In this document: piece by piece, positions 2,626 through 20,533 of the stretch | Position numbering within the stretch: the stretch's first letter is position 1 | How the letters are laid out: each line of letters opens with the position of its first letter | Assembly: GCA_963675495.1 (NCBI GenBank) | Contig: OY776215.1 | Span: 1,760,001 to 1,824,000, forward strand | Length of the DNA stretch: 64,000 bases | Direction: 5' to 3' | Source: an uncultured Methanolobus sp. | GTDB lineage: Archaea > Halobacteriota > Methanosarcinia > Methanosarcinales > Methanosarcinaceae | Position numbers and translations under genes: made by a program | Notes under the pieces: generated by a model | Told to the model about the DNA's origin: nothing | The model's input: only the letters and a program-made list of their open reading frames with translations | The model's database searches: none

Positions 2626-4227
2626 TCACAGTGCTTTTTTAACTGTGAACCAGAAAACGCTTCCCCTTCCAAGTGGGTTGTTATCCACACCGATTTCTCC
2701 ATTGTGGAGTTCGACAATTCTTTTGGCAATGGCTAGCCCAAGACCGCTTCCTTTTACGCTTCCTTTGTCTGCCTGCTTGAAACGCTCAAATATCATGGCC
2801 TTGTCCTCATTGCTGATACCCGGACCAACATCATTGACCTTGATTTTCCATTTATCTCCTATATCTGAGATATCAATTGTTATTTTCCCTTTTGGAGGGC
2901 TGAATTTAATGGCATTGGAAATCAGATTCAGGAATACCTCTTCTATCAGAGGATTTATAAGTGAAGGGCATTCTTTTGCAGATTTAAAATCAAGTTCAAT
3001 GTCCATTTTATTCATTTCAGGGCCAAAGTTCCTGATAACTTTCTCCAGAATGGGTACAAAGTCCTGCTCTTCAAATCTGATATCATCGATAGATTCAAGT
3101 TTAATGAACTTTGAAGCCGATTCTATCATATAGATCAACTTTTCGTTGTTCTTGTGTATTCTGTCAAGCAGTTTTTTCTTGTTATCTTCATCTTCAACTA
3201 TAATGAGTTCCTCAGTGAAACCCCTGATAATATTTGCAGGGTTGAGAAGATCATGGGTGAGTATGTCAGTGAACAATACTTTGAGATAATTTGCATCTTC
3301 AAGCTCTTTTGCATACTTTTTGAGGTTCTCTTCAGTTTCCTTTCTGCTCAGAGACTCAGCAAGTACATTGGTCACAGACTGTACAAAGTGCATATCATCG
3401 TTTGTGAACACCCTTTTTTGAGTGGTGTGTACGTTCATAGTTCCGAAAGGTTTCTCCTTGCTTCCGATAACTGAGTCCATTCCACTTAAAATTCCTTGGT
3501 CTTTTAACAAGGATAAACCACTGAATTTTTTCTGCGTCCTATTCTCATGAACTATGGCTCTTTCACCTGAATAAAGAGTGTAGCAAATAATTTCATTTTT
3601 ATTCCTGTCCTTGTTTTCAGACTTAACGTTGTATTCTTTTTCCCATCCTACACCTGCAACCATAATGGAATTCTCATCCTCGTGTTTCATTATTCGGCAA
3701 TATTCAACATCAAGTGTGCTGGCTACAAGTTTGACAGATTCCATCATCAGAGTATCAAGATCCGCCCCGGCAAGTCCTTCCTGTCCAAGTTTAGCAACAG
3801 CAGCCTGCTGTTTTTCCCTCATCTGTAGGACTTTTTCTACGGATTTACGCTCACTGATGTCCTTTGTATGTCGCACGACCATTGTGACATTTTCATTGTC
3901 ATCAAAAACAGGGGATAACTCAACAAGTTTCGTTTTATTATCCAGAGGGTCTTCAATTTCAAATTTCTTGCATACACCGCTTGCAAAAACCTCAATCAAG
4001 TGGCATGGTTCACAGGGTTTGCTTTGCTTCATCAGGCAGCTATAACAAAAAGGATGTCCCTGTTTTTCATTTGCAGGTATTGACTCACAATTCTTCCAGT
4101 TGCTTACTACGATTTTCAGATCACGGTCTATCACGACTATGAGGTCTTGAACTGATGTAAAGGCCTTTTTCAGGAGGTTGAGCTGTTGATTCTTTAGCTC
4201 ATCGTTTTTTGGTTCACAGATTGAAAT
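2626..4227 (-). CDS. PAS/GAF sensor histidine kinase
   Basis: H-box THDLLNP, NLISNAIKF, DVGPGI, GSGLGLAI. The track start is GTG 4134, but the frame stays open upstream and an ATT start at 4227 is proposed. Confidence 0.9.
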   Translation of the reverse strand: MSICEPKNDELKNQQLNLLKKAFTSVQDLIVVIDRDLKIVVSNWKNCESIPANEKQGHPFCYSCLMKQSKPCEPCHLIEVFASGVCKKFEIEDPLDNKTKLVELSPVFDDNENVTMVVRHTKDISERKSVEKVLQMREKQQAAVAKLGQEGLAGADLDTLMMESVKLVASTLDVEYCRIMKHEDENSIMVAGVGWEKEYNVKSENKDRNKNEIICYTLYSGERAIVHENRTQKKFSGLSLLKDQGILSGMDSVIGSKEKPFGTMNVHTTQKRVFTNDDMHFVQSVTNVLAESLSRKETEENLKKYAKELEDANYLKVLFTDILTHDLLNPANIIRGFTEELIIVEDEDNKKKLLDRIHKNNEKLIYMIESASKFIKLESIDDIRFEEQDFVPILEKVIRNFGPEMNKMDIELDFKSAKECPSLINPLIEEVFLNLISNAIKFSPPKGKITIDISDIGDKWKIKVNDVGPGISNEDKAMIFERFKQADKGSVKGSGLGLAIAKRIVELHNGEIGVDNNPLGRGSVFWFTVKKAL

Positions 4228-4518
4228 ATGGATTCCCCGTTTATTGAAGGTAGCAAGATTATTCTGTAAATTGGTTATGCCAATAGTATAATTTTATAGC
4301 ATTCATTTACAAGTGAAAGGTGTCTTGGATTCTCATATTTATATGTATCCGGCATGACTGGATATCATAATGAGAATGATGTTGATATGTAGAAATTTGT
4401 TTTTAGCCGCTTTAATGAAACGAGTCGAAAATCTATATGAAGGGACTTTAAAAAATTATAAAAAAGTTTGAATATCCAATCTCAGATATTCGATGCAAAG
4501 CAATATTTGATATAAAAA

Positions 4519-5373
4519 TTACAATTTTATTCCGCAATGTTTGCAGAATCGGGCATCTATATCATTATTCTGATTGCCGCAATTATTGCAGATGATTTTA
4601 GGTCTTGCCCTATCCCTTGCATCAATAGATGCCAGGCTCATCTCAGCTGTTACAATACCTGTAGGGACAGCAATAATACTGTAACCCATTATCATAACAA
4701 CAGAAGCCAGAGTTCTTCCAAGTGATGTCTGTGGCACAAGGTCACCAAAGCCTACAGTTGTCAGGGTTACAATAGCCCAGTATATGCTCATTGGTATACT
4801 TGAAAATCCGTTCTGCTCTCCTTCTATCAGGTACATGAGTGATCCAAGGATAACGACAAGTGTTAGTACCGCAAAAAGAAAAACAGTAATCTTCCGGCTG
4901 CTGGCCTTCAAGGCATCGATCAGTAATTCAGCTTCATTAAGGTACTTGACCAGTTTGAGAATACGAAATATTCTCAGGACCCTGAGTATCCTTATAACCA
5001 GCAAAAACTGGCTTCCTGGCAGGAACAGGCTCAGATAGGTCGGGACTATTGCCAGCAGATCAACTATTCCAAAAAGACTTGTTGAGTATTGGATCTTGCT
5101 TTTAACGGATATAAGTCGAAGAATGTATTCAATCGTAAAAAGTATCGTGAAAAACCATTCTATATTGTAGAGGAATTCTTCGTTTCCAATCCTAAATGAT
5201 TTGACGCTGTCCAGCATAACTACAAGGACACTCAACAGGATGCTTATTATAAGCAAGAGATCGAAATATCTTCCTATAGGTTTCTCTGCCTCAAATATAA
5301 CATCATATAGGCGGCTTCTCCAGTTATTACCATCGGGTCTGTTGCTAGAATATACATCCTCATATGGAGCCAT
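4519..5373 (-). CDS. Voltage-gated-type potassium channel with C-terminal zinc ribbon
   Basis: S4 helix IRILRVLRIFRILKL, selectivity filter TTVGFGD, CxxC..CxxC tail. Confidence 0.9.
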   Translation of the reverse strand: MAPYEDVYSSNRPDGNNWRSRLYDVIFEAEKPIGRYFDLLLIISILLSVLVVMLDSVKSFRIGNEEFLYNIEWFFTILFTIEYILRLISVKSKIQYSTSLFGIVDLLAIVPTYLSLFLPGSQFLLVIRILRVLRIFRILKLVKYLNEAELLIDALKASSRKITVFLFAVLTLVVILGSLMYLIEGEQNGFSSIPMSIYWAIVTLTTVGFGDLVPQTSLGRTLASVVMIMGYSIIAVPTGIVTAEMSLASIDARDRARPKIICNNCGNQNNDIDARFCKHCGIKL

Positions 5374-5383
5374 TATTTTTTCC

Positions 5384-6472
5384 TCAAAAATCAAACAGGC
5401 TTTTTTGTCCGGTGTTTCCCTGCAGGTTATCTACCCTGACACCTATACGTCTGAAGTTCATTTCACTTTCCTCAAGGAACTGGCTCATCAGTTCTTTTGC
5501 ATTCTCACTGAGAATATCCCTGTCACTTACAACATGATTTAGCGTTTTACTTTTTGTTGAAGTTTTGAAGTTTGAGAATATAACTGTTACTGTTAAGGAA
5601 CGAAAAGACACCTTCCTTGCTTTTACTTTGCCTATGACATCGTCCATGAGTTCATCCAGCAATGAAAATATCATATTCTCATTTCTGCTGTCATGTTTAA
5701 GGGATGCCATTCTACCTATCTGGTCAGTTGCTGTCCTTTCTTTTACAGGAGTTTCATCAACACCTGATGCAGCCTGCTTGAGCCATGTACCTTTGTTCTT
5801 CCCAAAAACAGATATCAGTTCCATGGAATCATAAATTGCAAGGTCCTCAATGTTCATGATGCCCATTTCAGATAATTTATCTTCAGTGACCTTTCCGATT
5901 CCCCATAATTTCTTCACAGGCATGGGTTTAAGGAACCCATGTACCTCTTCTGGTTTGATAACGGTGATTCCATCAGGTTTTTGGAACGAGGATGCCATCT
6001 TAGCGATGAGTTTGTTTGGACCTATGCCCACAGAACATGTTATTCTTTCCTGAGATTTCACTTCCTCTTTAATTCTCAGGCTAATTTCCTTTGCAAGTTC
6101 GTAGTCACCTTTACATGATTCAGTAATATCAAGGAAAGCCTCATCAATGCTGATCTTTTCGAAGGCCTCGTAGCTGTCGGAATTTTTTTTCAATATCTCC
6201 ATCACGTTTGCAGAGACTTCCTCGTAGAAAGGCTTGCGCACCGGCAGAAAAATTGCATCCGGTTTTTTCGATTTTGCCAGTTTGCAGGGCATAGCCGAGC
6301 GTATACCTGCTTTCCTGGCAACATAGTTAGATGTGCTTACAGCTCCACCCGATTCTCCCCTGTTCGAATACATACAGACAACAACGGCTTTACCTTTAAG
6401 AGAAGGGTCCTCCCTTTCTTCTATGGCTGCATAAAAGTAGTCCATGTCCACATGGATTATCACGCGTTCCAT
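5384..6472 (-). CDS. dinB: DNA polymerase IV (Y family)
   Basis: HVDMDYFYA, SIDEAFLD, AKMAS and WGIG motifs. Confidence 0.95.
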   Translation of the reverse strand: MERVIIHVDMDYFYAAIEEREDPSLKGKAVVVCMYSNRGESGGAVSTSNYVARKAGIRSAMPCKLAKSKKPDAIFLPVRKPFYEEVSANVMEILKKNSDSYEAFEKISIDEAFLDITESCKGDYELAKEISLRIKEEVKSQERITCSVGIGPNKLIAKMASSFQKPDGITVIKPEEVHGFLKPMPVKKLWGIGKVTEDKLSEMGIMNIEDLAIYDSMELISVFGKNKGTWLKQAASGVDETPVKERTATDQIGRMASLKHDSRNENMIFSLLDELMDDVIGKVKARKVSFRSLTVTVIFSNFKTSTKSKTLNHVVSDRDILSENAKELMSQFLEESEMNFRRIGVRVDNLQGNTGQKSLFDF

Positions 6473-6526
6473 TAGTAAGTAAGAAGGTCCGGGTGCTTTT
6501 TATTGTTAACTGATGCTTTTGTTTTC

Positions 6527-7585
6527 TTAGAGTATTGGGTCCCTGCAATCCACATAGATACTGCTGAAATCAGGTAGTTTTCCTGAAATTGGTTTTGCGT
6601 AGAGGTACATTTTATCATACAGTGGCTTGAATTTTTTCACAACTTCAAATATCGGATCTTCGGGGTCTGTGTAAATTCCGAAGAACTCACATTTTGTATC
6701 GAACATGAGATTATTGCAGTAGTTCATGATCTCTTCCATTGCAAGAGCATGTTCGGGTTCAAATGCGTGGTCCACTATGGAATGGAATTTGAAGAATTTC
6801 CCTTCAGGTGGTATTCTTGGCATACTGATAAAATGCCTGAGTATTCCGTAGGCATTTGACATGAGCTTCCACATCATTGGTTCTTTTGTGTATGTCATTT
6901 CCATGAGAATCGAAGAATCCCAGAAGCCAGCACAAGCCACTATTTTACCTTTCCACTTTGCCACAATGAAATTTTCAAGTCCATACCCCAATATTCTGTT
7001 TGTACGTTCCTTAAAGATTTCAGTTGTAAATGGTGAAAAGTGAGCTCTTCCATCGTAATAACTATTAATGAGTCTAACAGCTTCAGGAAGGTCTTTTGCT
7101 TCGACTCTCTCAAGATCATAATCTCTTTCAGTATGCTCTCTTTTATATGCAGACATCCCAATCGTCTGTATATCCTTTTCCTTAATGTAACCCAGTTTTT
7201 CGAAAAGCTTTATTGAAGGTACATTTGGTCCGTACACATAAGAGTATATATGTGAAGCTTTTGTTTCCTGTGCGACTTTCTCAGCTTCTCTTACGAGTTT
7301 GACTGCTATTCCCTTTTTTTGGTAGTCAGGATGCACCATAACTTCGGCTATGTAGGCATAATTCTGCTTAGGGGTTTGTTTTATGGTCCAGCCAACCCAA
7401 CCCACAGTTGTACTGTCTTCTTCAGCAACACGAATTTCCCAGTTATCGTAAAGTTCATACCTTGCAGTTATGTCTGGTTCCTTATCAACAACCATTGCAC
7501 ATTCTTCATTTCCCTGAGGACACAGTCTTTCAATATTTAGCAAGGTCTCGTTGTCTTCTTCTTTAAAAGGCCTGATATTTAACAT
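6527..7585 (-). CDS. GNAT family N-acetyltransferase (long, two-domain)
   Basis: VHPDYQKKGIA acetyl-CoA motif and N..SIKLFEKLG. Confidence 0.8.
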   Translation of the reverse strand: MLNIRPFKEEDNETLLNIERLCPQGNEECAMVVDKEPDITARYELYDNWEIRVAEEDSTTVGWVGWTIKQTPKQNYAYIAEVMVHPDYQKKGIAVKLVREAEKVAQETKASHIYSYVYGPNVPSIKLFEKLGYIKEKDIQTIGMSAYKREHTERDYDLERVEAKDLPEAVRLINSYYDGRAHFSPFTTEIFKERTNRILGYGLENFIVAKWKGKIVACAGFWDSSILMEMTYTKEPMMWKLMSNAYGILRHFISMPRIPPEGKFFKFHSIVDHAFEPEHALAMEEIMNYCNNLMFDTKCEFFGIYTDPEDPIFEVVKKFKPLYDKMYLYAKPISGKLPDFSSIYVDCRDPIL

Positions 7586-8831: not shown

Positions 8832-9797
8832 TCACTTTTTTTCCTTAAAAATGAGCCTTGGTTCCTCAATGACAACCTTCGTATCCGGTGGAACGGATCT
8901 AGTTAACCACACGCTACCACCAATAACCGAACGTGCTCCGATTACAGTTTCTCCGCCAAGTATGGTTGCGTTTGAATAGATTATAACGTTATCTTCTATG
9001 GTAGGGTGTCTCTTTTCTCCACGAATGAGCTTGCCGGTGTCATCTTTTGGGAAACTCAGGGAACCAAGGGTAACACCCTGATAGATACGGACGTTGTTTC
9101 CAATTTCACATGTCTCACCAATGACGACACCTGTTCCATGGTCGATGAAGAATCCATTTCCTATCCTGGCTCCAGGGTGAATATCAATTCCAACGATACT
9201 GTGAGCATATTCTGTCATTATTCGTGGAACTATGGAAATTCCCTGTTTGTGCAGTTCATGGGCTGATCTGTAGACCGTCATGGCAAGTAGGCCAGGGTAA
9301 CTGAAAATGATCTCATCATAATTTTTAGCTGCAGGGTCTCCCTCGTATATGGCAATAATATCCGATGCCAGCATGGACCGTATTTCGGGAATCTTTTTCA
9401 GGAACTTCAATGTTTCCTCATGTCCGCGGTCAATACATTCGGTGCATTCTTCTTCAAAGCGATTGCATTCATGTATGATGCTGTTGGTTATTTGTTTTGA
9501 GAGTTTGCTAAAGAGTTCGGTAATCTCGTTTCCGATGTGATATGAAAGTGTGTTCCTGTCAACAGTCTGATCCCCAAAGTAACCGGGAAAAAGAATGTCC
9601 TTTATCAGATCAATTATTTCTATAAGCGATTCTTTTGATGGTATTACTGCAGCATCAAGATGGTCAAAGCACCCCTTTTCAGAGCAACTGTTTATGACCA
9701 TGTCCACAATTTCAGGGATTTCTGACCGGTATTCGTTATCGATCATAGAATCCAGTATCACGCATCTTTGCTTTTGCGCTGGTGATTTTTTATCCAT
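8832..9797 (-). CDS. cysE: Serine O-acetyltransferase (long EpsC-type)
   Basis: GDPAA, IDIHPGA, FIDHGTGVVIGET, KRHPTI hexapeptide repeats; directly upstream of cysK. Confidence 0.95.
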   Translation of the reverse strand: MDKKSPAQKQRCVILDSMIDNEYRSEIPEIVDMVINSCSEKGCFDHLDAAVIPSKESLIEIIDLIKDILFPGYFGDQTVDRNTLSYHIGNEITELFSKLSKQITNSIIHECNRFEEECTECIDRGHEETLKFLKKIPEIRSMLASDIIAIYEGDPAAKNYDEIIFSYPGLLAMTVYRSAHELHKQGISIVPRIMTEYAHSIVGIDIHPGARIGNGFFIDHGTGVVIGETCEIGNNVRIYQGVTLGSLSFPKDDTGKLIRGEKRHPTIEDNVIIYSNATILGGETVIGARSVIGGSVWLTRSVPPDTKVVIEEPRLIFKEKK

Positions 9798-10098
9798 AGT
9801 TTACCACTACCTGTTTTTGACTAGTTGAATTGTTAACGGTGTGAACGCGTGTTATGCTTTAAAGAATCGGTGAATTATGTAGTACTAATTTTTCCGGCAA
9901 AGTATCTGTCGAAAATCAATTAATGGTCTACTTTCAGCACTCCCATATGATGGTTGAAAGCAATGAGATTTAAAAGCTTTGAAGTTACATAAATACCAGT
10001 CTAAAAATGAGAGTTTAGGATCCAGGAAGGGAACATTTTTCATCTGCTTCTCCGTGAATTTAAACAACTCTTAAATACCAGACAATAATAGACCTTTT

Positions 10099-11256
10099 AT
10101 GAAACTTTCCGGGAGCCTATTGAAGATCATAAGTGAAGACCTGATGCCTGTAACTGAAATTGATATAAGGGCTCTGGCGGAAATCTATGCTGAAAAGGAT
10201 ATTTACCTTTCAGTCTATCTTCCGGTGTCCGGAAGGGAAAACGAACATTTGAATCGCATATTTGTGGATTCAAGAGTGAAGTCGATCAAAAAAGCTTTGT
10301 CTTCTAAGCTCAGGTCTGAATTTGAAAAGACCTTTGATATGGCTGAAAAATCAATATTTGAACCTCCAATTTCCGGTGAGAAAGGCAGGGTTATCTTTGC
10401 CAGTTCATCAGAATCTTTCCTGCACGTTTACAAACTGGCTGTGGAGCCGGAGCAGTCACTGGTTCTTGATACATCACCTTTTTTGCTGCCACTGGCAAAA
10501 CTGAGGGCAGACTATGATGACTATGGCGTACTGCTTGTTGATTCCCAGGAGGCTAAGTTCACATGTGTACGCTCGGATCTCACAGAGGAAAAAAAACACC
10601 TATCTATAGACCTGATGAACAAGCACAAAAAAGGAGGATGGAGTCAGATGCGCTTCAACCACCTGAGAAAAGGGGCGATAAAATCCTTTTTGTCTGAAGT
10701 TGCTGATAACATCAAAGGCACATGTGACCAGCTACAGACAAGAGGTCTGGTAATTGCCGGACCCGGAGAGGCAAAACAACAACTAATGGACTTGCTACCA
10801 CAGGATGTCCGGCAGAGTGTACTGGGTGTTATTGACGTAGCAATGGATATTTCCCTTGATGAACTGGTAGAGGAAAGCTATTCTGTCCTGCACGAAAATG
10901 AACTTTCCATATCAAAGAAAAAAGCGAATGAGTTAAAAAACGCAATCTTAAAGGGTGGACTGGCTGTCCATGGTGTGGAAGATGTCAGAGATGCTCTGGA
11001 GCAGGGAAGAGTAAATGTCCTGCTGATCCTGAAGGGTTCATCAGTTTCCGGGTGGATATGTGAGAGATGCCAGAATCTCCAGGCAAATGTTCAGCCTCCG
11101 AAGGAATGTGACAGGTGCGGGGGTCCAACATCAGTTATTGATGTGGTGGAAGAACTCTATGAACTTGCCCAGCGCACAGGTTCAGAGGTCGAATTCGTGG
11201 AAAAAGAGGATTTTCTGGACTCTGATGATGTGGTGGGTGCGTTACTTAGATACTGA
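10099..11256 (+). CDS. eRF1/aRF1-fold protein of the VLRF1/baeRF type (putative peptidyl-tRNA hydrolase or ribosome rescue factor)
   Basis: KHKKGGWSQMRF loop, eRF1 domain-3-like end (VGALLRY), CxxC..CxxC zinc ribbon. The start may be ATG 10144. Confidence 0.8.
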   Translation: MKLSGSLLKIISEDLMPVTEIDIRALAEIYAEKDIYLSVYLPVSGRENEHLNRIFVDSRVKSIKKALSSKLRSEFEKTFDMAEKSIFEPPISGEKGRVIFASSSESFLHVYKLAVEPEQSLVLDTSPFLLPLAKLRADYDDYGVLLVDSQEAKFTCVRSDLTEEKKHLSIDLMNKHKKGGWSQMRFNHLRKGAIKSFLSEVADNIKGTCDQLQTRGLVIAGPGEAKQQLMDLLPQDVRQSVLGVIDVAMDISLDELVEESYSVLHENELSISKKKANELKNAILKGGLAVHGVEDVRDALEQGRVNVLLILKGSSVSGWICERCQNLQANVQPPKECDRCGGPTSVIDVVEELYELAQRTGSEVEFVEKEDFLDSDDVVGALLRY

Positions 11257-11295
11257 GAGATAATTATCTCTCTGTTTTTCAATGATCCTTGCTGA

Positions 11296-11997
11296 TCATT
11301 TGATGCAGTAAAAACCAGCCTGCATGTAAGAATACCAGAACAATTCTACGGTCCTGAATCCTGTTTTTCTTAGTAGTTCCAGATGTTCTTCAATTGTTAT
11401 GGGAAAATATTCAGTATCAAAACGCTTAAGGTGAGTTTCTATTTCTTCCATGCTTCTTCCATGGGTGGACTGGAACTCTCCCCAGTAACTTTTTCCAACA
11501 TCAACGCCTTTTTCTGTAAGCGGCCTGATGTTTTCAAAAGTGATGAAAATAGCATCTTGTTTTAGTAGTTCATGACATACTTTTACGGCTTTGGTTCTTT
11601 TTTCAGGGCTAAGATAATGATGGCATTGGATGGCAGTAATAACATCCGGCCTTTCATTAAGTTCCTGTGAGAATTCCTGTGTTGATGAAGTTCTCAGAAA
11701 TTCAAGCCTTCTGGGAGTATATGATGAAAGTTTTTCCCTTGCATGTTGCAGCATTCCCTCAGATGGGTCAAGCATAAGAAATTTTGTATCAGGGAACTGT
11801 TCAATTGCTTTTGTAACCAGTGAACCGGTACCACATCCGGTATCCATCCAGACATTCGGGCTATTAGGTAGTGACCTGACAAGGTTGATGGTTTCCTGAT
11901 GGAAAATTGAGTAATAAGGAAGAACTGCAGATATTTTTGTATCGTAATCCTCGGGAGGATGAGGTGTCATATTTTCAGAGGGCTCTGTAGAGGACAT
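11296..11997 (-). CDS. Class I SAM-dependent methyltransferase (CmoA-like fold)
   Basis: MDTGCGTG motif I, DPSEGML. Confidence 0.85.
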   Translation of the reverse strand: MSSTEPSENMTPHPPEDYDTKISAVLPYYSIFHQETINLVRSLPNSPNVWMDTGCGTGSLVTKAIEQFPDTKFLMLDPSEGMLQHAREKLSSYTPRRLEFLRTSSTQEFSQELNERPDVITAIQCHHYLSPEKRTKAVKVCHELLKQDAIFITFENIRPLTEKGVDVGKSYWGEFQSTHGRSMEEIETHLKRFDTEYFPITIEEHLELLRKTGFRTVELFWYSYMQAGFYCIK

Positions 11998-12066
11998 GTA
12001 CAAAGTTGGACTATTTTTTACTTTATATCTCCTTTGGAAGAACACTTATATAATGTAACAATTAAA

Positions 12067-12080
12067 TGACTGATTAGTCA
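12067..12080. promoter_or_regulatory. Palindromic operator candidate TGACT-N4-AGTCA
   Basis: Inverted repeat just downstream of a TTATATAA box (~12046) in the divergent intergenic region before the aldo/keto reductase. Confidence 0.45.
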
Positions 12081-12165
12081 ATTTTAGATATGGACTATAG
12101 AAAAACAAATACTGAAAGAGTGCAATTATAATTACAATTCGTTATTGAATAAGAGGATGAATTCA

Positions 12166-13374
12166 ATGTTATACAGAAAAATGCCAAATAACGGCGATGA
12201 GCTTTCAATACTTGGTTTTGGAGCCATGCGCCTGCCGGTCACAGAAGATGGGAGCATTGATGAGGAAAAAGCTATGCAAATGGTTCGCCACTCAATAGAT
12301 AATGGAGTGAATTATGTGGATACAGCATGGCCTTATCATATGGGTGCAAGTGAGCCTTTCCTTGCACGTGCACTTGCAGATGGATATAGGGAAAAAGTGA
12401 AACTTGCTACTAAACAACCACAATGGATGGTCAAAAAACCAGAGGATATGGACAGGTTCCTCAATGCCCAGCTTGAGAAGCTGAATACGGATCACATTGA
12501 TTACTATCTCATTCACAGCCTTGTGGGCAGTAGCTGGGAGAATATCCGGGATCTTGGTGTGGCTGAATTCCTTGACAGAGCCAAAGCTGACGGACGTATC
12601 ATCAATGCAGGTTTCTCATACCATGGCGATCCTGAGGATTTCGTACCAATTGTGGACGGCTATGACTGGGATTTCTGTCAGATCCAGTATAATTTCCTGG
12701 ATGAGAACGTTCAGGCAGGGACAGAAGGACTTGAGTATGCCGCCTCCAAAGGTCTTGGTGTTGTGGTAATGGAACCTCTGCGTGGTGGAAACCTTGCGAA
12801 TCCTATTCCTGCTGAAGCAATGGATATTTGGAACGAGGCGGGTACCAGTCGCAGTCCTGTAGAGTGGGCATTGCGCTGGGTCTGGAACCATCCAGAAGTC
12901 ACTGTTGTGCTTTCCGGTATGACCGAGCCATCTCATGTAGAAGAGAACCTGAAGATTGCAAAGGAAGGTCTTGCCAATTCACTGACCGAAAAAGAGCTGA
13001 AACTTGTTAGCAGGGTTGCGGAGAAATACGCTGAACTCATGAAGATCAACTGCACTGGTTGCAGATACTGTATGCCATGTCCTGAGGGCGTAGATATCCC
13101 TGCATGTTTTGAGATGTACAATAACCTGTACATGTTTGGTGATAAGAACGGAATGCTGAAAATGATGTATGCTGCGAAGCTTGGCGACGTACTCAGAGGA
13201 GCCGAGACGAATTTCGCTTCACAATGTGTACAATGCGGTCAGTGTCTGGATGCATGTCCTCAACATATACCGATACCTGACATGCTGGAAAAGGTTGCAG
13301 AGGAATTCGAAGGTCCTGGTATGGAAGAGCGAAGGGTTTTTGTCAAGCAGCTGTTTGCTAACGATAGCTGTTAG
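12166..13374 (+). CDS. Aldo/keto reductase with C-terminal 4Fe-4S domain
   Basis: LGFGAMRLP, DTAWPYH, MEPLRGG, CTGCRYCMPCP and CVQCGQCLDACP; GAGGA RBS. Confidence 0.92.
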   Translation: MLYRKMPNNGDELSILGFGAMRLPVTEDGSIDEEKAMQMVRHSIDNGVNYVDTAWPYHMGASEPFLARALADGYREKVKLATKQPQWMVKKPEDMDRFLNAQLEKLNTDHIDYYLIHSLVGSSWENIRDLGVAEFLDRAKADGRIINAGFSYHGDPEDFVPIVDGYDWDFCQIQYNFLDENVQAGTEGLEYAASKGLGVVVMEPLRGGNLANPIPAEAMDIWNEAGTSRSPVEWALRWVWNHPEVTVVLSGMTEPSHVEENLKIAKEGLANSLTEKELKLVSRVAEKYAELMKINCTGCRYCMPCPEGVDIPACFEMYNNLYMFGDKNGMLKMMYAAKLGDVLRGAETNFASQCVQCGQCLDACPQHIPIPDMLEKVAEEFEGPGMEERRVFVKQLFANDSC

Positions 13375-13475
13375 ATCCTTAGAATAATACAATGATTGCA
13401 GATAGGGACATCAGATAACCGTAGAGAACCTTAAAGGATTAGCTGGATTTCAGTTGTAGCGAGGAGGTGCTGAAC

Positions 13476-13592
13476 ATGCTTTTCCTTGCACAACCGAACT
13501 CTTGCCTTGTGCTTGCATCTGTGTTGTTGACACTGGCATCTGCTCTTATACTGAAAAGGAGTTTTGTCAAATGGGGCAAGTACTGTGTATGA
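13476..13592 (+). CDS. Putative 38-aa single-TM microprotein
   Basis: Strong SD GAGGAGGTG before the ATG; MLFLAQPNSCLVLASVLLTLASALILKRSFVKWGKYCV. Confidence 0.4.
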   Translation: MLFLAQPNSCLVLASVLLTLASALILKRSFVKWGKYCV

Positions 13593-13728
13593 TATTTATT
13601 TCAATTGAAATTTTATAAAATACAAATAACAAATTAATTAAATAGTATCATTGAGTTTGTTTATGGTGTAGCTATTCTACATTGTTTTGTAGAGTGTTTT
13701 CTTCTATCAATAAAAAGAGCTGAATTTT

Positions 13729-14514
13729 ATGGGAAAGGCATTACTTGATGTTCTGTTTGCTTCTGAAAAAAGAAAGAATGTGATTCTATTACTGAAAGAT
13801 GGCTCTAAGGAAATGAGTTTTCTACTTGATAGTATCAATACTTCAAGACAGGCATTACTTCCGCAGATGAAGATCTTGAAAGAGCACAATCTCATTTATC
13901 AATCGGATGATAGTTACGGGTTGACAAGTATTGGAAATTTATTAGTTAATGAAATGAAACCCTTTCTGGATACTATTGAAACACTGGATGAAAGTAGTCG
14001 CTATTTCACGCAACACAAACTAGATGCTATTCCAAAACATCTCCTGAAAAGGATAAATGATATTAGGGGTTTAACTCTTGTAGAACCCGGATATGTTAAT
14101 TCAATTGAACTCAATGCAGATTATCTTACAGATTGTCTTGACTCCAAAGCTGTTTACTTTGTTTATACTTTTATGCATCCAGGAGCCCTGCCTGTTTTAG
14201 ACCAGTTGACTGATAAAGGCATAGAGGTTTTTATTATCTTTTCTAAAGAACTTATCTCTAAATTGATCGATGAAATGTATGCTGAATGTAAATCTGCTTT
14301 TGGACTTGAAAATGTTAAGATATATGTGTACGAAAGAGATGTAGAAATTTCATCGCTCACGGTTTCTGACACTGGTTTTCTTTTAAGGCTACTTTCCAAA
14401 GATAATGAATTTAGCAATAAACAGGTTATATGCTCCAGTCCAGAAGGGCGCAAATGGGGTAAGGACCTTTATGATTATTACCTTAAAGATGCAGAGCTGA
14501 TAAGTGAAATATAA
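13729..14514 (+). CDS. Winged-HTH transcriptional regulator (DUF1724-type, methanogen family)
   Basis: ASEKRK..LLLL..G, SRQALLPQMKILKE wHTH, C-terminal W..DLYDYY; paralog of 61795-62580. Confidence 0.85.
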   Translation: MGKALLDVLFASEKRKNVILLLKDGSKEMSFLLDSINTSRQALLPQMKILKEHNLIYQSDDSYGLTSIGNLLVNEMKPFLDTIETLDESSRYFTQHKLDAIPKHLLKRINDIRGLTLVEPGYVNSIELNADYLTDCLDSKAVYFVYTFMHPGALPVLDQLTDKGIEVFIIFSKELISKLIDEMYAECKSAFGLENVKIYVYERDVEISSLTVSDTGFLLRLLSKDNEFSNKQVICSSPEGRKWGKDLYDYYLKDAELISEI

Positions 14515-14627
14515 TTGTTTATGTTTCTTTTTTCTGACAAAAAGAGTAATTTAAACTGTTGTAATAAATTCGATACAATGAAATTAAGATCATATTTATT
14601 GTTTTTATTGCCAAAGTTAGGTTAAAT

Positions 14628-14711
14628 ATGAGCAATTACACAATCGAAGAAAAAATCCTTTTAGTGGAAGAGTACATCCACCTTAGAAAATCTATGTGTT
14701 GTGAGAGATAG
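14628..14711 (+). pseudogene. 5' remnant of a GNAT acetyltransferase paralogous to 15381-15794
   Basis: MSNYTIEEKILLVEEYIHLRKSMCCER* aligns with MIDYTIEEKLPSVEEYIQLRKSVGW. Confidence 0.7.
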
Positions 14712-14821
14712 CTAGTTATATTCAGGATATATAGAGCATTAATCTGCTACCTCTGCAATTACGACTTCAAAGTTCTTGCAGGGTATGGAAAATATATCAT
14801 TGGATTCTGTGGAGAAGTATA

Positions 14822-15268
14822 ATGATAACACATGAACAAATATTCAGGAAGGTAATCCATTTAGTGACGCTTGTCGTCCTATACGTCCTCTTGCTGGGAA
14901 TAATCATAGGATTGTTTAATATTTTCCAGAATATAGGATACGTCTGGCTGACAAAGGGTGGCTTTGGCCAGGTAGTGTACAGTGTTCTGACAATTTTTGT
15001 CCTTATTGATCTCTTCAAGGCATTTTCAGATTACCACGTTCACGAAAGGATCAGGCTTACGTATGTAAGTGATGCCACGATCATGATAGTTTTGCGTGAG
15101 GTCACTGTATTGATATACAGTCATGAATTTGAAACAGAGCTTTTATTGTCATTCTCGGCATTGCTTCTGGTATTGGGCATTATAAGGGCTATAGCTGTCA
15201 GGTTTCCACCAAGTGAAAATTCAGACCCCATTTCACCTATCAAAGAAAAGAATATTGAAGAAGAATAA
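14822..15268 (+). CDS. PsiE-family (phosphate-starvation-inducible) membrane protein
   Basis: Four TM segments with VLTIFVLIDLF and DATIMIVLRE signatures. Confidence 0.8.
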   Translation: MITHEQIFRKVIHLVTLVVLYVLLLGIIIGLFNIFQNIGYVWLTKGGFGQVVYSVLTIFVLIDLFKAFSDYHVHERIRLTYVSDATIMIVLREVTVLIYSHEFETELLLSFSALLLVLGIIRAIAVRFPPSENSDPISPIKEKNIEEE

Positions 15269-15794: not shown

Positions 15795-16104
15795 AATGAG
15801 ATTTTTAAGAGATCTTGTAGTGTAAGATCTATCGGGCAAGTATGCTATCTTCTTGCAAACCATTTTTATTCCATTCAATTTAATATAATTCTTTATGGTT
15901 TCTCCTGATCCTATAATTTGAAAAATCACCCGAAAAATATAAATGCTATTTATGAATTCATGATTTTGAACCATGCTCCATTCAAAGCAGTAATAGACCA
16001 AAATCCAAGATTATATGCGTTTTATTAAATACAAAAATAATCAAATGCGTTTTAATTATTTATAAATTCAGCATCATACGGCTTGTTGTGTTTATGCAAA
16101 TACC

Positions 16105-16267
16105 TTCTGACATAAATTCTTCAACAATATTTAAATATGATAATTCGGAATGTGTTTTACAAAAAATATAAATATGGTTAGTTTGTTTTACCCTCGTGCT
16201 GTACTCCTTAAAAACAGTAATAAAATCAAAATTATCTCGAACTCTCATAAATTAATGAGGTGTAAAA
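16105..16267 (+). promoter_or_regulatory. Promoter/leader copy 1 (TATA 16130, GGAA-N6-TTAC 16147-16160)
   Basis: Aligns by eye with 16825-16986 with the same TATA-to-box spacing. Confidence 0.6.
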
Positions 16268-16432
16268 ATGGAAATCGAAGATCTTGTTCTATCTACTCTT
16301 GCTATTGGTATTCTGGTAAGTTTTTTCATCTACGCTATGACGAACTCTCTTCACTCTAGTCTACCATTGGTTGAAACTCTGGCAATTGGTGGTCTTTGGG
16401 CCTATCTTTTCAATAATCCGAATATTTTATAG
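16268..16432 (+). CDS. 54-aa two-TM microprotein, copy 1
   Basis: GAGGTG RBS; MEIEDLVLSTLAIGILVSFFIYAMTNSLHSSLPLVETLAIGGLWAYLFNNPNIL; paralog at 18673. Confidence 0.8.
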   Translation: MEIEDLVLSTLAIGILVSFFIYAMTNSLHSSLPLVETLAIGGLWAYLFNNPNIL

Positions 16433-16824
16433 AATCTCATATCTTGCTTCAATGTACCTGATGTGAGTATGTGTTATGGAATGCTGGTTGGGATTTGAGA
16501 TAAGTCAGCAAATCTTATTTTTGGATTCATAAAGACAAAGACAATCTTTTTTTTATATAGTTAGTGAGTTTAAATTGGGCATTAGATTTTGATTTGATTA
16601 AATGACTTGTAGCATAGTTTTACGGGAATTTTAAATAATGTAGTTTAAAGTTCAGTGCCATACATTTTATATATTTATTGAATTGCCTTTTTATTTCATG
16701 TTCATTCAAAACATAAAAAAAATCAAATTCAAGGACATATGCCGTTTTGTTACTCCAGGTACGTTCAAATGTCCGTTTAAGATTTCTAAATAAAAATCAA
16801 TAGCAATGAATTTTTTCTGATTGT

Positions 16825-16986
16825 TTTCTAACAAAAGTTAAACAATCTTTATATATAGGAATAAGGAATCTGTTTTCCGAAAAATATAAGTAGTATGTAT
16901 TACTTTTTGATTTTACATCATAATTTCTTCAAAACAGAATATGGTTAAAATTGTATGCAACTATCAAAAATATATGGGATGTACGA
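16825..16986 (+). promoter_or_regulatory. Promoter/leader copy 2 (TATA 16848, NrpR-like GGAA-N6-TTCC 16865-16878)
   Basis: TTTATATA followed by GGAATCTGTTTTCC; homologous to copy 1. Confidence 0.6.
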
Positions 16987-18528
16987 ATGAACGATAAAAC
17001 AGATGGTACACAGGCCGGTATAGACTGGGAGCATGGTGCCCAGTGTAGTAAAGTGATATGTGATCCACAGGAACTTGAAAGGACAATCGACTGGAAACAG
17101 GGACTTGCAATAGCATTGGGTGTTCCTTTATTGATCCTGCCTTCAATAGGATATCTGACGAGTTATGTCTGGTCTTTTGCAATAGTTATTTGGGGAGCTA
17201 CGGTTCTCCTCGGGTTCCTGCAAAACCTGGCATTCGGGGAACTTGCAACAGTATTTCCAAAAGCTTCCGGTTTGCCAGGATATACACAGACCGTATTTGG
17301 GTCGAATAAAGATAAGAACAACAAAGGCAAGTTCAAACTAGGAAAATTCATTGGTGGTTTCAGTGCCTGGAGTTACTGGTTCGGATGGAGTCCTGTCCTT
17401 GCTATCTATGCTATTTTAATATCAAGTTACCTTCAGGGTATGGTTCCGGCACTTGGCGGAATTAATTCAACTCTCCTTGCATTGATAGTTGGAGGAGTGA
17501 TCTTTGGTTCTCTTTCTATAATTAATTCAAAAGGACTTAAGAACGGAGCTGCAGCCGGATTTATCCTGGCTCTTATATCACTGGTTCCTCTTCTGGTCAT
17601 CACTATTGCACCATTCTTTACAGGGGACTTCCATATGACTAACATAACAAGCTCATGGTTCCCTACGGACTGGAGCTGGGATGTGAAGCACATATTGATA
17701 CTTCTTGGTCTCTTAGCAATGGCTGAATGGAGTGCTGCTGCCTGGGAAACTGCTGCTATCTATGGTCCTGAGTACAAGAAGCCAAGTAGCGATGTTCCAA
17801 AAGCCCTACTGGTCTGTGGAGCTATCTGTCTTGTCCTCTATGTATTGGTACAGACATCTGTGATCGGTGCTCTTGGCGTTGATGGAGTTCTGGCAGAACC
17901 TATTTCCCCAATGCTTCCACTTGCCAATATGTCCCTTGGTCCTATCGGTGCTTCAATTTCAATAGTAATGTTGATAGGAGCAATGCTTCTTATCATCCAG
18001 ACTGCTTTCCTCTCATCTGCACGTTCTATATACTCAATGTCAGTTGAAGGCAACCTCCCTTCAGTTTTCAGCAAGTTGAACTCACATGGTCATCCTTCAA
18101 ATGCAATGATAGCCGATGCTCTTTTCAACATGGTCCTAATTCTCCTTGGAACACCCACAGCAATTATTGCTGCCTCTGCAATCGGGTACATATGTGCTAA
18201 TGGTATCAGTCTGTACACTTATGTCAAGGTCAGGAACGATCCTGAGATGTCAAAACTGGAAAGGCCTTTCAAAGCTCCAAAAGGATGGAAGCATGTGGCA
18301 CTGGCAACTACTTTCCTGAACACTCCACTATTTCTGATAGGCATAATCTACCTTAATAGCCTTGAACTTGGCTGGGCTGCAACAGGAGTTGGTTTTGCAA
18401 TGCTCTGTCTCTTCATTCCTCTCTGGATGTATTCCCAGCGGGAGTCCAGGAGCAAGATGCCTGCAGCTCATGTAACACATAAAGAACGTGACCTTTTACA
18501 TGAAACGGAACCTGTGCCTCTGGAATAA
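16987..18528 (+). CDS. APC-family permease, methylamine permease (MtmP/MtbP)-like
   Basis: About 12 TM; LERTIDWKQGLAIALGVPLLILPSIG, WSAAAWETAAIYGPEYK and RPFKAP resemble methanogen methylamine permeases as I recall them. Confidence 0.85.
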   Translation: MNDKTDGTQAGIDWEHGAQCSKVICDPQELERTIDWKQGLAIALGVPLLILPSIGYLTSYVWSFAIVIWGATVLLGFLQNLAFGELATVFPKASGLPGYTQTVFGSNKDKNNKGKFKLGKFIGGFSAWSYWFGWSPVLAIYAILISSYLQGMVPALGGINSTLLALIVGGVIFGSLSIINSKGLKNGAAAGFILALISLVPLLVITIAPFFTGDFHMTNITSSWFPTDWSWDVKHILILLGLLAMAEWSAAAWETAAIYGPEYKKPSSDVPKALLVCGAICLVLYVLVQTSVIGALGVDGVLAEPISPMLPLANMSLGPIGASISIVMLIGAMLLIIQTAFLSSARSIYSMSVEGNLPSVFSKLNSHGHPSNAMIADALFNMVLILLGTPTAIIAASAIGYICANGISLYTYVKVRNDPEMSKLERPFKAPKGWKHVALATTFLNTPLFLIGIIYLNSLELGWAATGVGFAMLCLFIPLWMYSQRESRSKMPAAHVTHKERDLLHETEPVPLE

Positions 18529-18554
18529 TAGAATAAGAATACGAGTGCTACACC

Positions 18555-18591
18555 TGGGTCCTGATCTATGAAAATATCAGGATCCATTTTT
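18555..18591 (+). terminator. Hairpin plus T-tract after the permease
   Basis: TGGGTCCTGAT / ATCAGGATCCA stem followed by TTTTT. Confidence 0.5.
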
Positions 18592-18672
18592 AGATTCGGG
18601 TGTATCACTCAAGAACTGAAAAAATAGAAAATTAAAAAACTGGCTTTATTACCTATTTTCACTGGTGTAAAA

Positions 18673-18837
18673 ATGGAAATTGAAAATCTCATTATTGCTA
18701 ATTTTGCTATTGCTATTCTGGCAAGTTTTTTCATCTACTCAGCGACTAATCCTCTCCCGTCAGGAATCACGGTGCTTGAAACTCTGGCAATTGGTGGTTT
18801 ATGGGCCTACCTTTTCAATAATCCAAATATTTTATAG
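18673..18837 (+). CDS. 54-aa two-TM microprotein, copy 2
   Basis: GGTG RBS; MEIENLIIANFAIAILASFFIYSATNPLPSGITVLETLAIGGLWAYLFNNPNIL; same length as copy 1 and identical last 19 aa. Confidence 0.8.
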   Translation: MEIENLIIANFAIAILASFFIYSATNPLPSGITVLETLAIGGLWAYLFNNPNIL

Positions 18838-18886
18838 AAAATCAGATTCCAAGACCAAAAATCTCTTTTCTGATTTTCTAATTTTT

Positions 18887-20533
18887 TCAGTTCTCCTTCT
18901 TCAAGTAAGCCAGAGCTTCCTGCGTGCTATCACAGATATGCACATGCTGCTTTTCCATTAGTTCAGTGAGTTCCCTGTCGCTTTTCATCCTTCTCATGAC
19001 TTCGGGCTGTATTGAGGTTAGGTAGACTTTCTGGTGGAGTTTTTTACTTGACTTGATGAAACTCTTAAGTCGCTCGATTCCTGTTGTATCTATGAAGGGA
19101 ACATAACGCATACGCAAGATAATATGCGGTTTGCTGATGGCTATGTGTTCGTTTATTTTGCCCTCGAAAACGTTCATGGCTCCAAAGAAGAAGGGGCCGT
19201 TGATGGTGTAGACCGAGACGTTCTTTTCAAGGTAGGGGTCGGCAAAGATGGTTGCGTTGATGCCTTTTGTCTTGTCGTAGTTTTCCATTGTCTGAACGTC
19301 TATTACATTTGTCAGCCTGATGAAGAGCAGGATAATTGAAAGGAACATACCCATCTGTACGGCGAACACGAGGTCAGTGAGCACTGTGAGCAGGAAAGTG
19401 GCAAGCAGGACAGCAGTGTCCATCTTGCTGATATGCAGTGTGGTTTTGAGTTCTGTTAGATTGATCATCCTCACAGAAACGAGAATGAGCACACCTGCGA
19501 GGTAAGCTTTGGGGATGAAAGCAGCGATCGGACCCAGGAAGAGCAGTATGATGAGCAGTATCAAGGCGTGGAATATACCTGACATCTGTGTCTTTGCACC
19601 TTCCCTGATGTTTACAGCACTTCTTGCAATAGCTGCTGTGCAGGGAATTCCTGAGAAGAATGGTAGAACCATGTTTGCAATTCCATGACCAATAAGCTCC
19701 TTGTTGCTGTTGTGTTTTGTGTTGGTCATACCATCACAGACCACGGCACAGAGTAGTGATTCAATGGTTCCCAGCAGTGCGATTGTAAGGGCGGCTGGCA
19801 AGATTGCCATGAGTAGTCCAAGGTTGAAGTTCAACATCTGTATCTGTGGAAGTCCGGCAGGGATGCTGCCAACGATAGGGATGTTGATATTGTAGTAAAA
19901 GACAAGTATGACCGATAGTATCAGTGCGATAATGGAAGCCGGAAGGCTGTTGATATATTTGATTTTTGCCAGTATTCCCGGCAGATATAACAGAAGCATA
20001 ATGGTGGCAATACATATCGTTATAGCAGTTGTGTCAAGGAGGTTCATATTGGAGACGATGGCATACAGCGTTTCCCATACGTGTTCCTTTGCAGGAATTG
20101 TAATTCCAAGAGCATTTGGTATCTGGCCGATAAGAATGATGGCACCGATACCACTCGTGAATCCTGATATGACGGGTAGGGGGATGTATTTAACGACCTT
20201 ACCAAGTTTCAGGATCCCGAATAGTATCTGAAATGCACCGGCAAGGAAGCCCGCAAGGAATAGTCCTTCAAGCCCGAAGCCGTGCAGTGTTGAAAGAATG
20301 ATGACTGTCATTGCTCCGGTGGGTCCGGAAATAGAGTATTTTGATCCACCGGTTGCTGAGACCAGCATACCTGCAATTATAGCCGTGTACAACCCCATCT
20401 GAGGCTCCACACCAGAAGCGATAGCAAAAGCAATAGCAAGCGGCAATGCCACAATGGCTGTGATGAATCCAGCCTTTAGGTCGCTCGCTAACGATTCTTT
20501 GAAATATTGTGAAACTTTATTTTGTTTTTCCAT
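18887..20533 (-). CDS. SulP-family anion transporter with STAS domain
   Basis: DLKAG...ALPLAIAFAIASG, ISGPTGAM, GPFFFGA, DTTG. Confidence 0.93.
   Translation of the reverse strand: MEKQNKVSQYFKESLASDLKAGFITAIVALPLAIAFAIASGVEPQMGLYTAIIAGMLVSATGGSKYSISGPTGAMTVIILSTLHGFGLEGLFLAGFLAGAFQILFGILKLGKVVKYIPLPVISGFTSGIGAIILIGQIPNALGITIPAKEHVWETLYAIVSNMNLLDTTAITICIATIMLLLYLPGILAKIKYINSLPASIIALILSVILVFYYNINIPIVGSIPAGLPQIQMLNFNLGLLMAILPAALTIALLGTIESLLCAVVCDGMTNTKHNSNKELIGHGIANMVLPFFSGIPCTAAIARSAVNIREGAKTQMSGIFHALILLIILLFLGPIAAFIPKAYLAGVLILVSVRMINLTELKTTLHISKMDTAVLLATFLLTVLTDLVFAVQMGMFLSIILLFIRLTNVIDVQTMENYDKTKGINATIFADPYLEKNVSVYTINGPFFFGAMNVFEGKINEHIAISKPHIILRMRYVPFIDTTGIERLKSFIKSSKKLHQKVYLTSIQPEVMRRMKSDRELTELMEKQHVHICDSTQEALAYLKKEN

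Follow-up and report, generated by a model that had tools for sequence, protein, structure and literature searches.

We describe a family of small proteins (microproteins) encoded by two genes, A and B, that stand on either side of a gene for an APC-family permease in the genome of an uncultured Methanolobus sp. (assembly GCA_963675495.1; G000 in our genome set). The stretch analysed, referred to here as the window, comprises 64,000 nt of the forward strand of contig OY776215.1 (positions 1,760,001-1,824,000), and coordinates are counted from its first base. A and B are genuine, selected protein-coding genes, and they belong to a small family that is restricted to one lineage of methanogens. 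Comparison of gene order across genera indicates that the oldest and most constant address of this family is the 3' end of the dimethylamine cluster mtbC-mtbB-mtbP. The reading that we favour, and to which we give about an even chance, is that the microprotein would join MtbP-type permeases in the membrane as a partner, accessory or modulatory and dispensable, with a role linked to dimethylamine uptake.

A and B are selected protein-coding genes

The leader of A and the three genes on which the argument turns are as follows.

16259..16267, plus strand: GGTGTAAAA leader of copy A, abutting the ATG; its GGTG is the likely Shine-Dalgarno element
16268..16432, plus strand: microprotein gene A, 54 amino acids (aa), A-type, apparently resident in a GNAT-SulP-AlkD locus
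16987..18528, plus strand: gene for an APC-family permease, an MtbP-like paralogue (PF13520 match; start taken from orthologues)
18673..18837, plus strand: microprotein gene B, 54 aa, B-type, the copy that appears to travel with the permease

As originally predicted, the two 54-codon open reading frames (ORFs) lie upstream (A) and downstream (B) of the permease gene on the same strand, and each begins directly after GGTGTAAAA-ATG. From the end of A to the likely start of the permease (ATG 16987) there are 554 nt, and from the permease stop (18528) to the start of B there are 144 nt. The genome, 2.87 Mb in one contig, holds exactly these two copies. Their products align without gaps, with 37 of 54 residues identical (BLASTP, E 2e-26). 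The final 19 residues had been said to be identical despite silent changes in the DNA, and this is what the DNA alignment contains: four bases in three of the last 19 codons differ, all of them silently. We considered recent gene conversion as the source of these identical tails and rejected it, since the last 19 codons have a proportion of differing synonymous sites (pS) of about 0.23-0.30, comparable in magnitude with the 0.43 of the first 35; the tail is also conserved in distant single copies. Similarity between the two DNA sequences opens at GGTGTAAAA-ATG and decays a few bases past the TAG stop, which makes the ORF itself the conserved unit. Among the first 20 copies collected, GGTGTAAAA is exact before the ATG in 12 and carries one mismatch in two more (G196 and G075_dn), and its GGTG presumably pairs with the 3' end of 16S rRNA.

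Coding status was assessed on 28 intact copies, which come from G000 and 22 further Methanolobus genomes (23 in all). All 28 have 54 codons without insertions or deletions, and no frame other than the proposed one stays open throughout, each of the five others being open in zero to five copies. In a 24th genome, G206, the sole copy lies in the SulP-AlkD context (L083, G206:C29, 8875-8970), matches positions 17-51 only and, interrupted by a TAA in frame, probably represents a pseudogene. Pairwise differences per site among the 28 copies amount to 0.36, 0.21 and 0.51 at codon positions 1, 2 and 3, respectively. The ratio of non-synonymous to synonymous divergence (dN/dS, Nei-Gojobori) is 0.37 for A versus B, and over the 160 of 190 pairs among the first 20 copies for which dS was usable it has a median of 0.25 and a maximum of 0.66, with no value above 1, which bears out the earlier claim of purifying selection on the peptide. 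These data effectively refute the idea that A and B are chance ORFs or conserved non-coding DNA. Such an idea could draw on the shortness of the ORFs and the lack of a match to any known domain, but it is at odds with the 54 codons kept in 28 copies, the single common open frame, the abundance of third-position changes, the dN/dS of about 0.25, the conserved start context and the confident AlphaFold2 hairpin described below.

Several further matches were set aside: apparent copies in G061 and G137 contain internal stops, a match at G075:1434211 lies inside a 549-aa frame, two matches in G000 (366624 and 1897748) are spurious (E 0.1-0.5), and one at L057:14544-14624 lies on the opposite strand within a permease gene. 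The stop codon is TAG in 16 of the 28 copies, A and B included, compared with 10 of 48 long ORFs in the window, the copies not being independent of one another. An extension of the microprotein by pyrrolysine read-through of this TAG is unlikely, because the sequence after the stop is not conserved among copies.

Both products had been described as having two hydrophobic segments, and these are present in the hydropathy profile as well as in an AlphaFold2 model (34-row alignment), which folds as a two-helix hairpin (helices 3-25 and 29-49) with a mean pLDDT of 83.1. A and B contain no Lys or Arg and three to four acidic residues, and their grand average of hydropathy (GRAVY) is about 1.0. Family traits are an acidic N-terminus (M-E-I-E-D), a conserved Tyr, a Pro-rich turn, and a second helix with a conserved Glu at its start and a G-G packing motif; distant members of 58-61 aa retain the acidic start (I-E-D), a hydrophobic first helix with Tyr at its end, the short turn and the second helix. 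The model thus describes a predicted two-helix hairpin, which would insert in the membrane. Since the protein is devoid of Lys and Arg it is probably invisible to standard tryptic proteomics, and this may help to explain why it has gone unstudied. A type I toxin or holin-like peptide was rejected in view of the missing Lys and Arg, the two helices, the stable chromosomal synteny and the insignificance of the one holin match.

A small, lineage-restricted family

The description of A and B as members of an undescribed family agrees with database searches. Pfam-A returned no family for A, B, one copy from a RimK context, or the Methanococcoides and g12 members; the best NCBIfam match, TcpD_dom, scored 11.8 bits against a cut-off of 24; and the holin match, of one Methanohalophilus member to Phage_holin_5_2, had an E-value of 0.095 (13.4 bits, cut-off 29.2). 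Rfam gave no match at E <= 0.1 between positions 15800 and 19000 of the window, and the best feature score in the ESM Atlas, 0.84, was to clusters without names and supplied no usable lead. A literature search, which stopped short of the supplements of two Methanosarcina mazei papers, found no described microprotein partner of MtbP.

Relatives are few. Thirteen clusters match among 5.8 billion proteins, and a profile search of 1.84 billion representatives at E <= 0.001 returned 15 proteins, 12 of them 54-68 aa long; the three long ones (164, 589 and 1675 aa) match in several short stretches, look spurious and were rejected. Relatives elsewhere are labelled 'hypothetical protein' or 'uncharacterized membrane protein'. 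With a two-row profile, strong matches among 201 genomes of the order were confined to Methanolobus. A 24-row profile, run at E <= 0.001 against 177 Methanosarcinaceae genomes, matched 45 including G000, namely 23 of 35 Methanolobus genomes (g1) plus G000, all 13 Methanococcoides (g6), 7 of 11 Methanohalophilus (g3) and the single g12 genome. Three of the 24 rows had been drawn from g6 and g12, so genomes of these two genera match partly by construction. Eleven further Methanosarcinaceae genera had no family members in the same search. Members are 54 aa long in Methanolobus and 58-61 aa in Methanococcoides, Methanohalophilus and g12.

The permease is a putative MtbP-like paralogue

The permease between A and B had been called methylamine-permease-like, which is a fair description in the light of its match to PF13520 (AA_permease_2; 149.2 bits, cut-off 27, residues 74-474) and its 61% identity to a permease in an mtbC-mtbB-mtbP arrangement. 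The latter is a paralogue that lies directly after mtbC (NF041607) and a pyrrolysine-type mtbB (TIGR02368, broken at its amber codon), which is the position of mtbP, in G000 (L057) and in other genomes. In G112 (L054) that position is held by an orthologue of the window permease itself, 87% identical. The best NCBIfam match is to a trimethylamine N-oxide (TMAO) permease, NF053774, at 230.7 bits; as the cut-off is 690, the window permease is a relative of that family only, and NCBIfam has no curated MtbP model. Among solved structures, the closest chain is that of a lysine-specific permease (9eyd_A, E 3.7e-7). No mtb genes adjoin the permease in the window, and we regard it as an orphan MtbP-like paralogue and a putative dimethylamine permease.

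The mechanically called ORF starts at TTG 16951 (525 codons), and a start at ATG 16987 gives 513 aa. Because all ten close orthologues align only from residue 8-13, and most of them start at the equivalent of ATG 16987, this ATG is probably the true start. In G204 the orthologue is disrupted by a change of frame near residue 435 and an internal TGA (L056, G204:C2:193000-211000, 5271-6805); the microprotein gene downstream of it is intact (L056 7031-7192).

Linkage to the dimethylamine cluster

In three genera other than Methanolobus the microprotein gene stands at the end of the mtb cluster. All 13 Methanococcoides loci end in a PAS/GAF protein, a receiver domain and the microprotein, with mtbP directly before the PAS/GAF gene on the same strand in 12 (the remaining locus, L061, ends at a contig edge) and with mtbC and mtbB ahead in all 11 loci that reach upstream of mtbP. 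The single g12 genome has the order mtbC, mtbB, mtbP, PAS/GAF, receiver, microprotein, U32 peptidase, and in all seven Methanohalophilus loci a 59-aa microprotein gene follows mtbP by about 250-265 nt and precedes the U32 peptidase gene. Nearly all of the Methanococcoides mtb loci (L058-L068) also have a second, distant PAS/GAF-like and receiver pair (36-47% identical) beyond a FilR1-type regulator, so that the dimethylamine cluster is framed by two sensor-receiver pairs.

Within Methanolobus, orthologues of the window permease at >= 87% identity occur in 12 genomes. The permease is an orphan in seven of them (G000, G099, G075, G177, G122, G168 and G204), and all seven have a microprotein gene directly downstream; four (G000, G099, G075 and G177) have a second copy preceding the permease. 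In the other five (G090, G055, G043, G112 and G083) a FilR1-type regulator adjoins the permease, and G112 alone has mtbC-mtbB upstream. Over all 36 Methanolobus genomes, this type of permease is present in 22 of 24 with the microprotein and in 7 of 12 without it (Fisher p 0.03, a value that overstates the association because these genomes are kin).

Two elements occupy the spacer between the permease and B.

18555..18591, plus strand: terminator-like 11-bp hairpin followed by a run of five T, 27 nt past the permease stop
18594..18672, plus strand: conserved 5' flank of B-type genes, ending in GGTGTAAAA; putative promoter and leader of B itself

The hairpin has a fold energy of -15.5 kcal/mol (z -2.6), and in an alignment of Methanolobus flanks the inverted repeat TCCTGAT...ATCAGGA with a T-run follows the permease in six of the seven rows that lie downstream of it; the repeat is kept behind the orthologous permease of five other Methanolobus genomes. 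A simple terminator scan missed this hairpin because its loop exceeds 8 nt; a scan for sigma-70 promoters and terminators, a method unsuited to archaea, gave counts at chance level. Four sequencing runs, all from one study, contain the DNA of window positions 16100-18950, and no RNA run with this region was listed. The 5' flank is 82-86% identical to the flanks of the upstream copies in G075, G099 and G177 (blastn), and it possibly functions as a promoter.

A number of observations weigh against an obligate partnership with the permease. The hairpin and the conserved 5' flank suggest that B is transcribed separately. Five genomes (G090, G055, G043, G112 and G083) keep a permease 87-91% identical to that of the window and have no family member anywhere at E <= 0.001, from which it follows that the permease does not need the microprotein; conversely, G158 and G202 carry the microprotein and have no permease match at E <= 1e-50. 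In g4, the largest genus searched, none of 59 genomes has a family member by the 24-row profile. In Methanococcoides the PAS/GAF and receiver genes separate mtbP from the microprotein, so that another partner is possible. Finally, 17 of the 28 intact Methanolobus copies are not beside a permease: 11 have a RimK-type ATP-grasp gene, an 880-aa TPR gene or both for neighbours, the GNAT/AKR-SulP-AlkD locus accounts for five, and the last is on a 2.5-kb contig. The expected synteny between the microprotein and the permease was thus recovered in part: linkage to the mtbC-mtbB-mtbP cluster extends over four genera, and the greater part of the Methanolobus copies are unlinked.

Taken together, the copies in unrelated contexts, which are still under purifying selection, the five genomes with the permease alone, and the separate 5' flank and hairpin could mean that the family encodes a general small membrane protein without a role in methylamine metabolism, whose position after mtbP reflects historical hitch-hiking, the gene being carried along or left behind by local rearrangements. 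We think this rather unlikely. The position after mtbP has been kept in three further genera despite other rearrangements, the orphan permeases retain a microprotein gene directly downstream in seven of seven cases, and the family is found only in four genera, each of which has mtb clusters at the loci examined.

The genes that intervene in Methanococcoides raise another alternative, in which the microprotein does serve methylamine metabolism but, for instance, by giving the PAS/GAF sensor and receiver, or FilR1/Msr-type regulators, an input from or an anchor in the membrane. PAS/GAF and receiver genes are indeed its immediate upstream neighbours in all 13 Methanococcoides loci and in g12, and several Methanolobus copies, among them those in RimK/TPR contexts in L039 and L042, have a FilR1-type regulator only a few kb away, the one in the window being at 13729-14514. 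However, in all seven Methanohalophilus loci no PAS/GAF-receiver pair intervenes between mtbP and the microprotein gene, sensor genes are absent from the orphan permease modules of Methanolobus, and proximity to FilR1 is weak evidence because FilR1-type genes are common in these genomes. We consider a role as sensor input or anchor improbable, although this and the other rival readings keep considerable weight.

Origin of the twin layout

The original prediction treated A and B as a functional pair bracketing the transporter, and this part of it found no support. In a tree of the DNA of the 28 copies, B belongs to a clade (support 98/99) in which nine copies are permease-adjacent and one, that of G079, is not, A clusters with the copy of G039, and the copies from RimK/TPR contexts form separate clades; A and B thus belong to different subclades, and A-type genes reside in relatives without the permease. 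The syntenic locus of G039 contains an aldo-keto reductase (AKR), FilR1, GNAT, a microprotein 94% identical to A, SulP and AlkD, and lacks both the permease and a second microprotein copy. An A-type locus without the permease is likewise present in G196, G201 and G211. Alignment of the window with G039 (blastn) halts at 16435, 3 nt past the stop of A, and resumes at 18891, with 2,455 nt in the window opposite 287 nt in G039, which delimits the following element.

16436..18890, plus strand: inserted or deleted module comprising the spacer, permease, hairpin, 5' flank and B (blastn against L033 of G039)

Since the G039 locus holds A alone and the window has 2,455 nt more, A appears to be the resident gene and B to have arrived with the permease, in what looks like a 2.45-kb insertion right after the stop of A. 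The twin appearance would then result from a permease-plus-B module that came to lie beside a resident A.

In G099, G075 and G177 a module of microprotein, permease and microprotein lies between mtbA and mtbC. Both copies in each of these genomes are B-type and have about 100 nt of 5' flank in common, and the low dS of the G099 pair (0.14), together with the grouping of G177_up with downstream copies, suggests exchange between direct repeats. Such repeats may help the permease module to move, and one could go further and suppose that the importance of the copies lies chiefly in their DNA, which as direct repeats would allow the module to be inserted, excised or duplicated through homologous recombination, the peptide being secondary. 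The boundaries of the insertion relative to G039, 3 nt past the stop of A and just after B, would fit this supposition, as would the shared 5' flank and the signs of exchange. On the other hand, the peptide is under purifying selection everywhere, even in single copies far from a permease, DNA identity between A and B is only about 72-78%, without a hybrid pattern at the 3' end of either, and no hybrid junction between repeats was found in the alignments. A role mainly as DNA would account at most for the origin of the twin layout, not for the existence of the gene, and we hold it to be very improbable.

Upstream of A, at a distance of 1-2.5 kb (window 13729-15268), are a FilR1/Msr-type regulator (PF08350; 13729-14514) and a membrane protein of the PsiE family, and FilR1-type regulators recur by many microprotein copies. 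In G039 the orthologues of the FilR1-type regulator and of the GNAT gene are each split into two tblastn pieces, about 1.1 and 2.35 kb apart (L033, G039:C1:1638000-1654000, 8909-13641), which suggests insertions, possibly insertion sequence (IS) elements, in both genes.

A proposed role in dimethylamine uptake

Methylamines rank among the main precursors of methane in marine and saline sediments, and to our knowledge no biochemical characterisation exists of the APC-type permeases MtbP and MtmP. From the selection on its sequence, its fold class, its narrow range and its linkage to mtbP, we infer that the microprotein would insert in the membrane and bind to MtbP-type permeases as a subunit that is accessory or modulatory, and dispensable, and that the bound microprotein would tune the uptake of dimethylamine (methylamine). 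More tentatively, and with distinctly less confidence than in the proposal as such, the family may represent an undescribed class of small subunit for APC-type MtbP that evolved independently of the small proteins MttS and MttQ of the trimethylamine transporter MttP, in which the conserved Glu at the membrane edge and the Trp/Tyr residues of helix 2 might take part in amine recognition or gating and the A and B types might match different permease paralogues.

According to the accessible part of a recent preprint, MttPQS is the only methanogen methylamine transporter shown to work, and it needs its microprotein subunits (bioRxiv 10.64898/2025.12.02.691841). The arrangement that we propose would resemble that of MttS and MttQ with MttP, an unrelated transporter. 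If the proposal is correct, a second, unrelated microprotein family at the dimethylamine permease would suggest that small subunits are generally part of methylamine uptake, and methylotrophic methanogens would have given different methylamine transporters separate dedicated microproteins. With a gene of 54 codons, genomes that naturally have or lack it, and naturally occurring permease paralogues, there would then be a concrete and cheap target for studying the control of affinity or specificity of dimethylamine uptake in Methanolobus, Methanococcoides and Methanohalophilus.

Comparison with known systems

Hydrophobic-helix proteins of about 30-60 aa that alter the stability, specificity or activity of large transporters are familiar from bacteria, where AcrZ acts on AcrB, KdpF on KdpABC and MgtS on MgtA and PitA, and they are often dispensable. 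In contrast to the present family they are mostly single-helix proteins, and they are bacterial and non-homologous. Small membrane subunits encoded beside transporter genes include DUF485 (YjcH) with ActP, DUF997 (YhdT) with PanF and DUF4212 with sodium:solute symporters, and in the heteromeric SLC3-SLC7 transporters the SLC7 component belongs to the APC family and needs a single-helix partner. Such partners usually co-occur strictly with their transporters, whereas the present family is often unlinked or absent, and in Pfam the microprotein matches none of DUF485, DUF997 and DUF4212. We know of no small membrane partner of this kind for the methylamine or APC permeases of archaea.

Among archaeal microproteins, sP36 of M. 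mazei regulates the ammonium transporter AmtB1 (PMC10714827, PMC11456600; accessible parts). As is proposed here, it modulates the uptake of a nitrogen compound through a membrane transporter; its sequence context is unrelated, and its gene does not lie beside an APC permease. It reportedly works with GlnK1 from the cytoplasmic side, and it is said not to be a two-helix membrane hairpin.

The closest parallel in arrangement is MttPQS itself. As far as the accessible part of the preprint goes, the single-helix MttS (49 aa) and the soluble MttQ (98 aa) of M. mazei co-purify with MttP, a DME-family trimethylamine transporter, deletion of mttS impairs growth on trimethylamine, and MtbP, APC and permeases go unmentioned (bioRxiv 10.64898/2025.12.02.691841); MttS had earlier been listed as sORF_05 (PMC11456600, likewise in its accessible part). 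Like MttS and MttQ, the members of the present family are small, occur only in methylotrophic methanogens and have their genes next to that of a methylamine transporter, in or near methyltransferase clusters; both groups were missed by annotation, and both are short and hydrophobic with aromatic (Trp/Tyr) and acidic residues. G000 has an MttPQS-like row of its own outside the window, on the minus strand downstream of mttB/mttC, with an EamA-type mttP (348 aa), an mttQ-like gene of 100 aa and a 49-aa mttS-like ORF (L086, G000:C1:1697000-1707000, 4121-5625). Its MttS homologue, picked by position (after mttP/mttQ and downstream of mttB/mttC) and by its length of 49 aa (L086:4124-4270, minus strand), showed no sequence relation to the microprotein family when compared with the 34-row family alignment (hhalign probability 0.3%, E 0.22), and no mttQ-like gene adjoins A, B or the permease among the ORFs of the window.

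The two systems also differ in build. MttS is described, in the part of the preprint at hand, as having a single transmembrane helix together with a short outer one, whereas two long helices are predicted for the present family, and MttP is a 10-helix DME/EamA transporter, while the proposed partner here is an APC/LeuT-fold permease. The mttS gene lies 18 bp after mttQ on one transcript by the same source, in contrast to the gaps of 144-554 nt, with a hairpin, found here; and binding and function are reported there as demonstrated for MttS, whereas gene linkage is what points to a partner role for the present family. There is therefore a precedent for a methylamine transporter with a microprotein partner, and none for the present family, its predicted two-helix fold or its APC-type neighbour.

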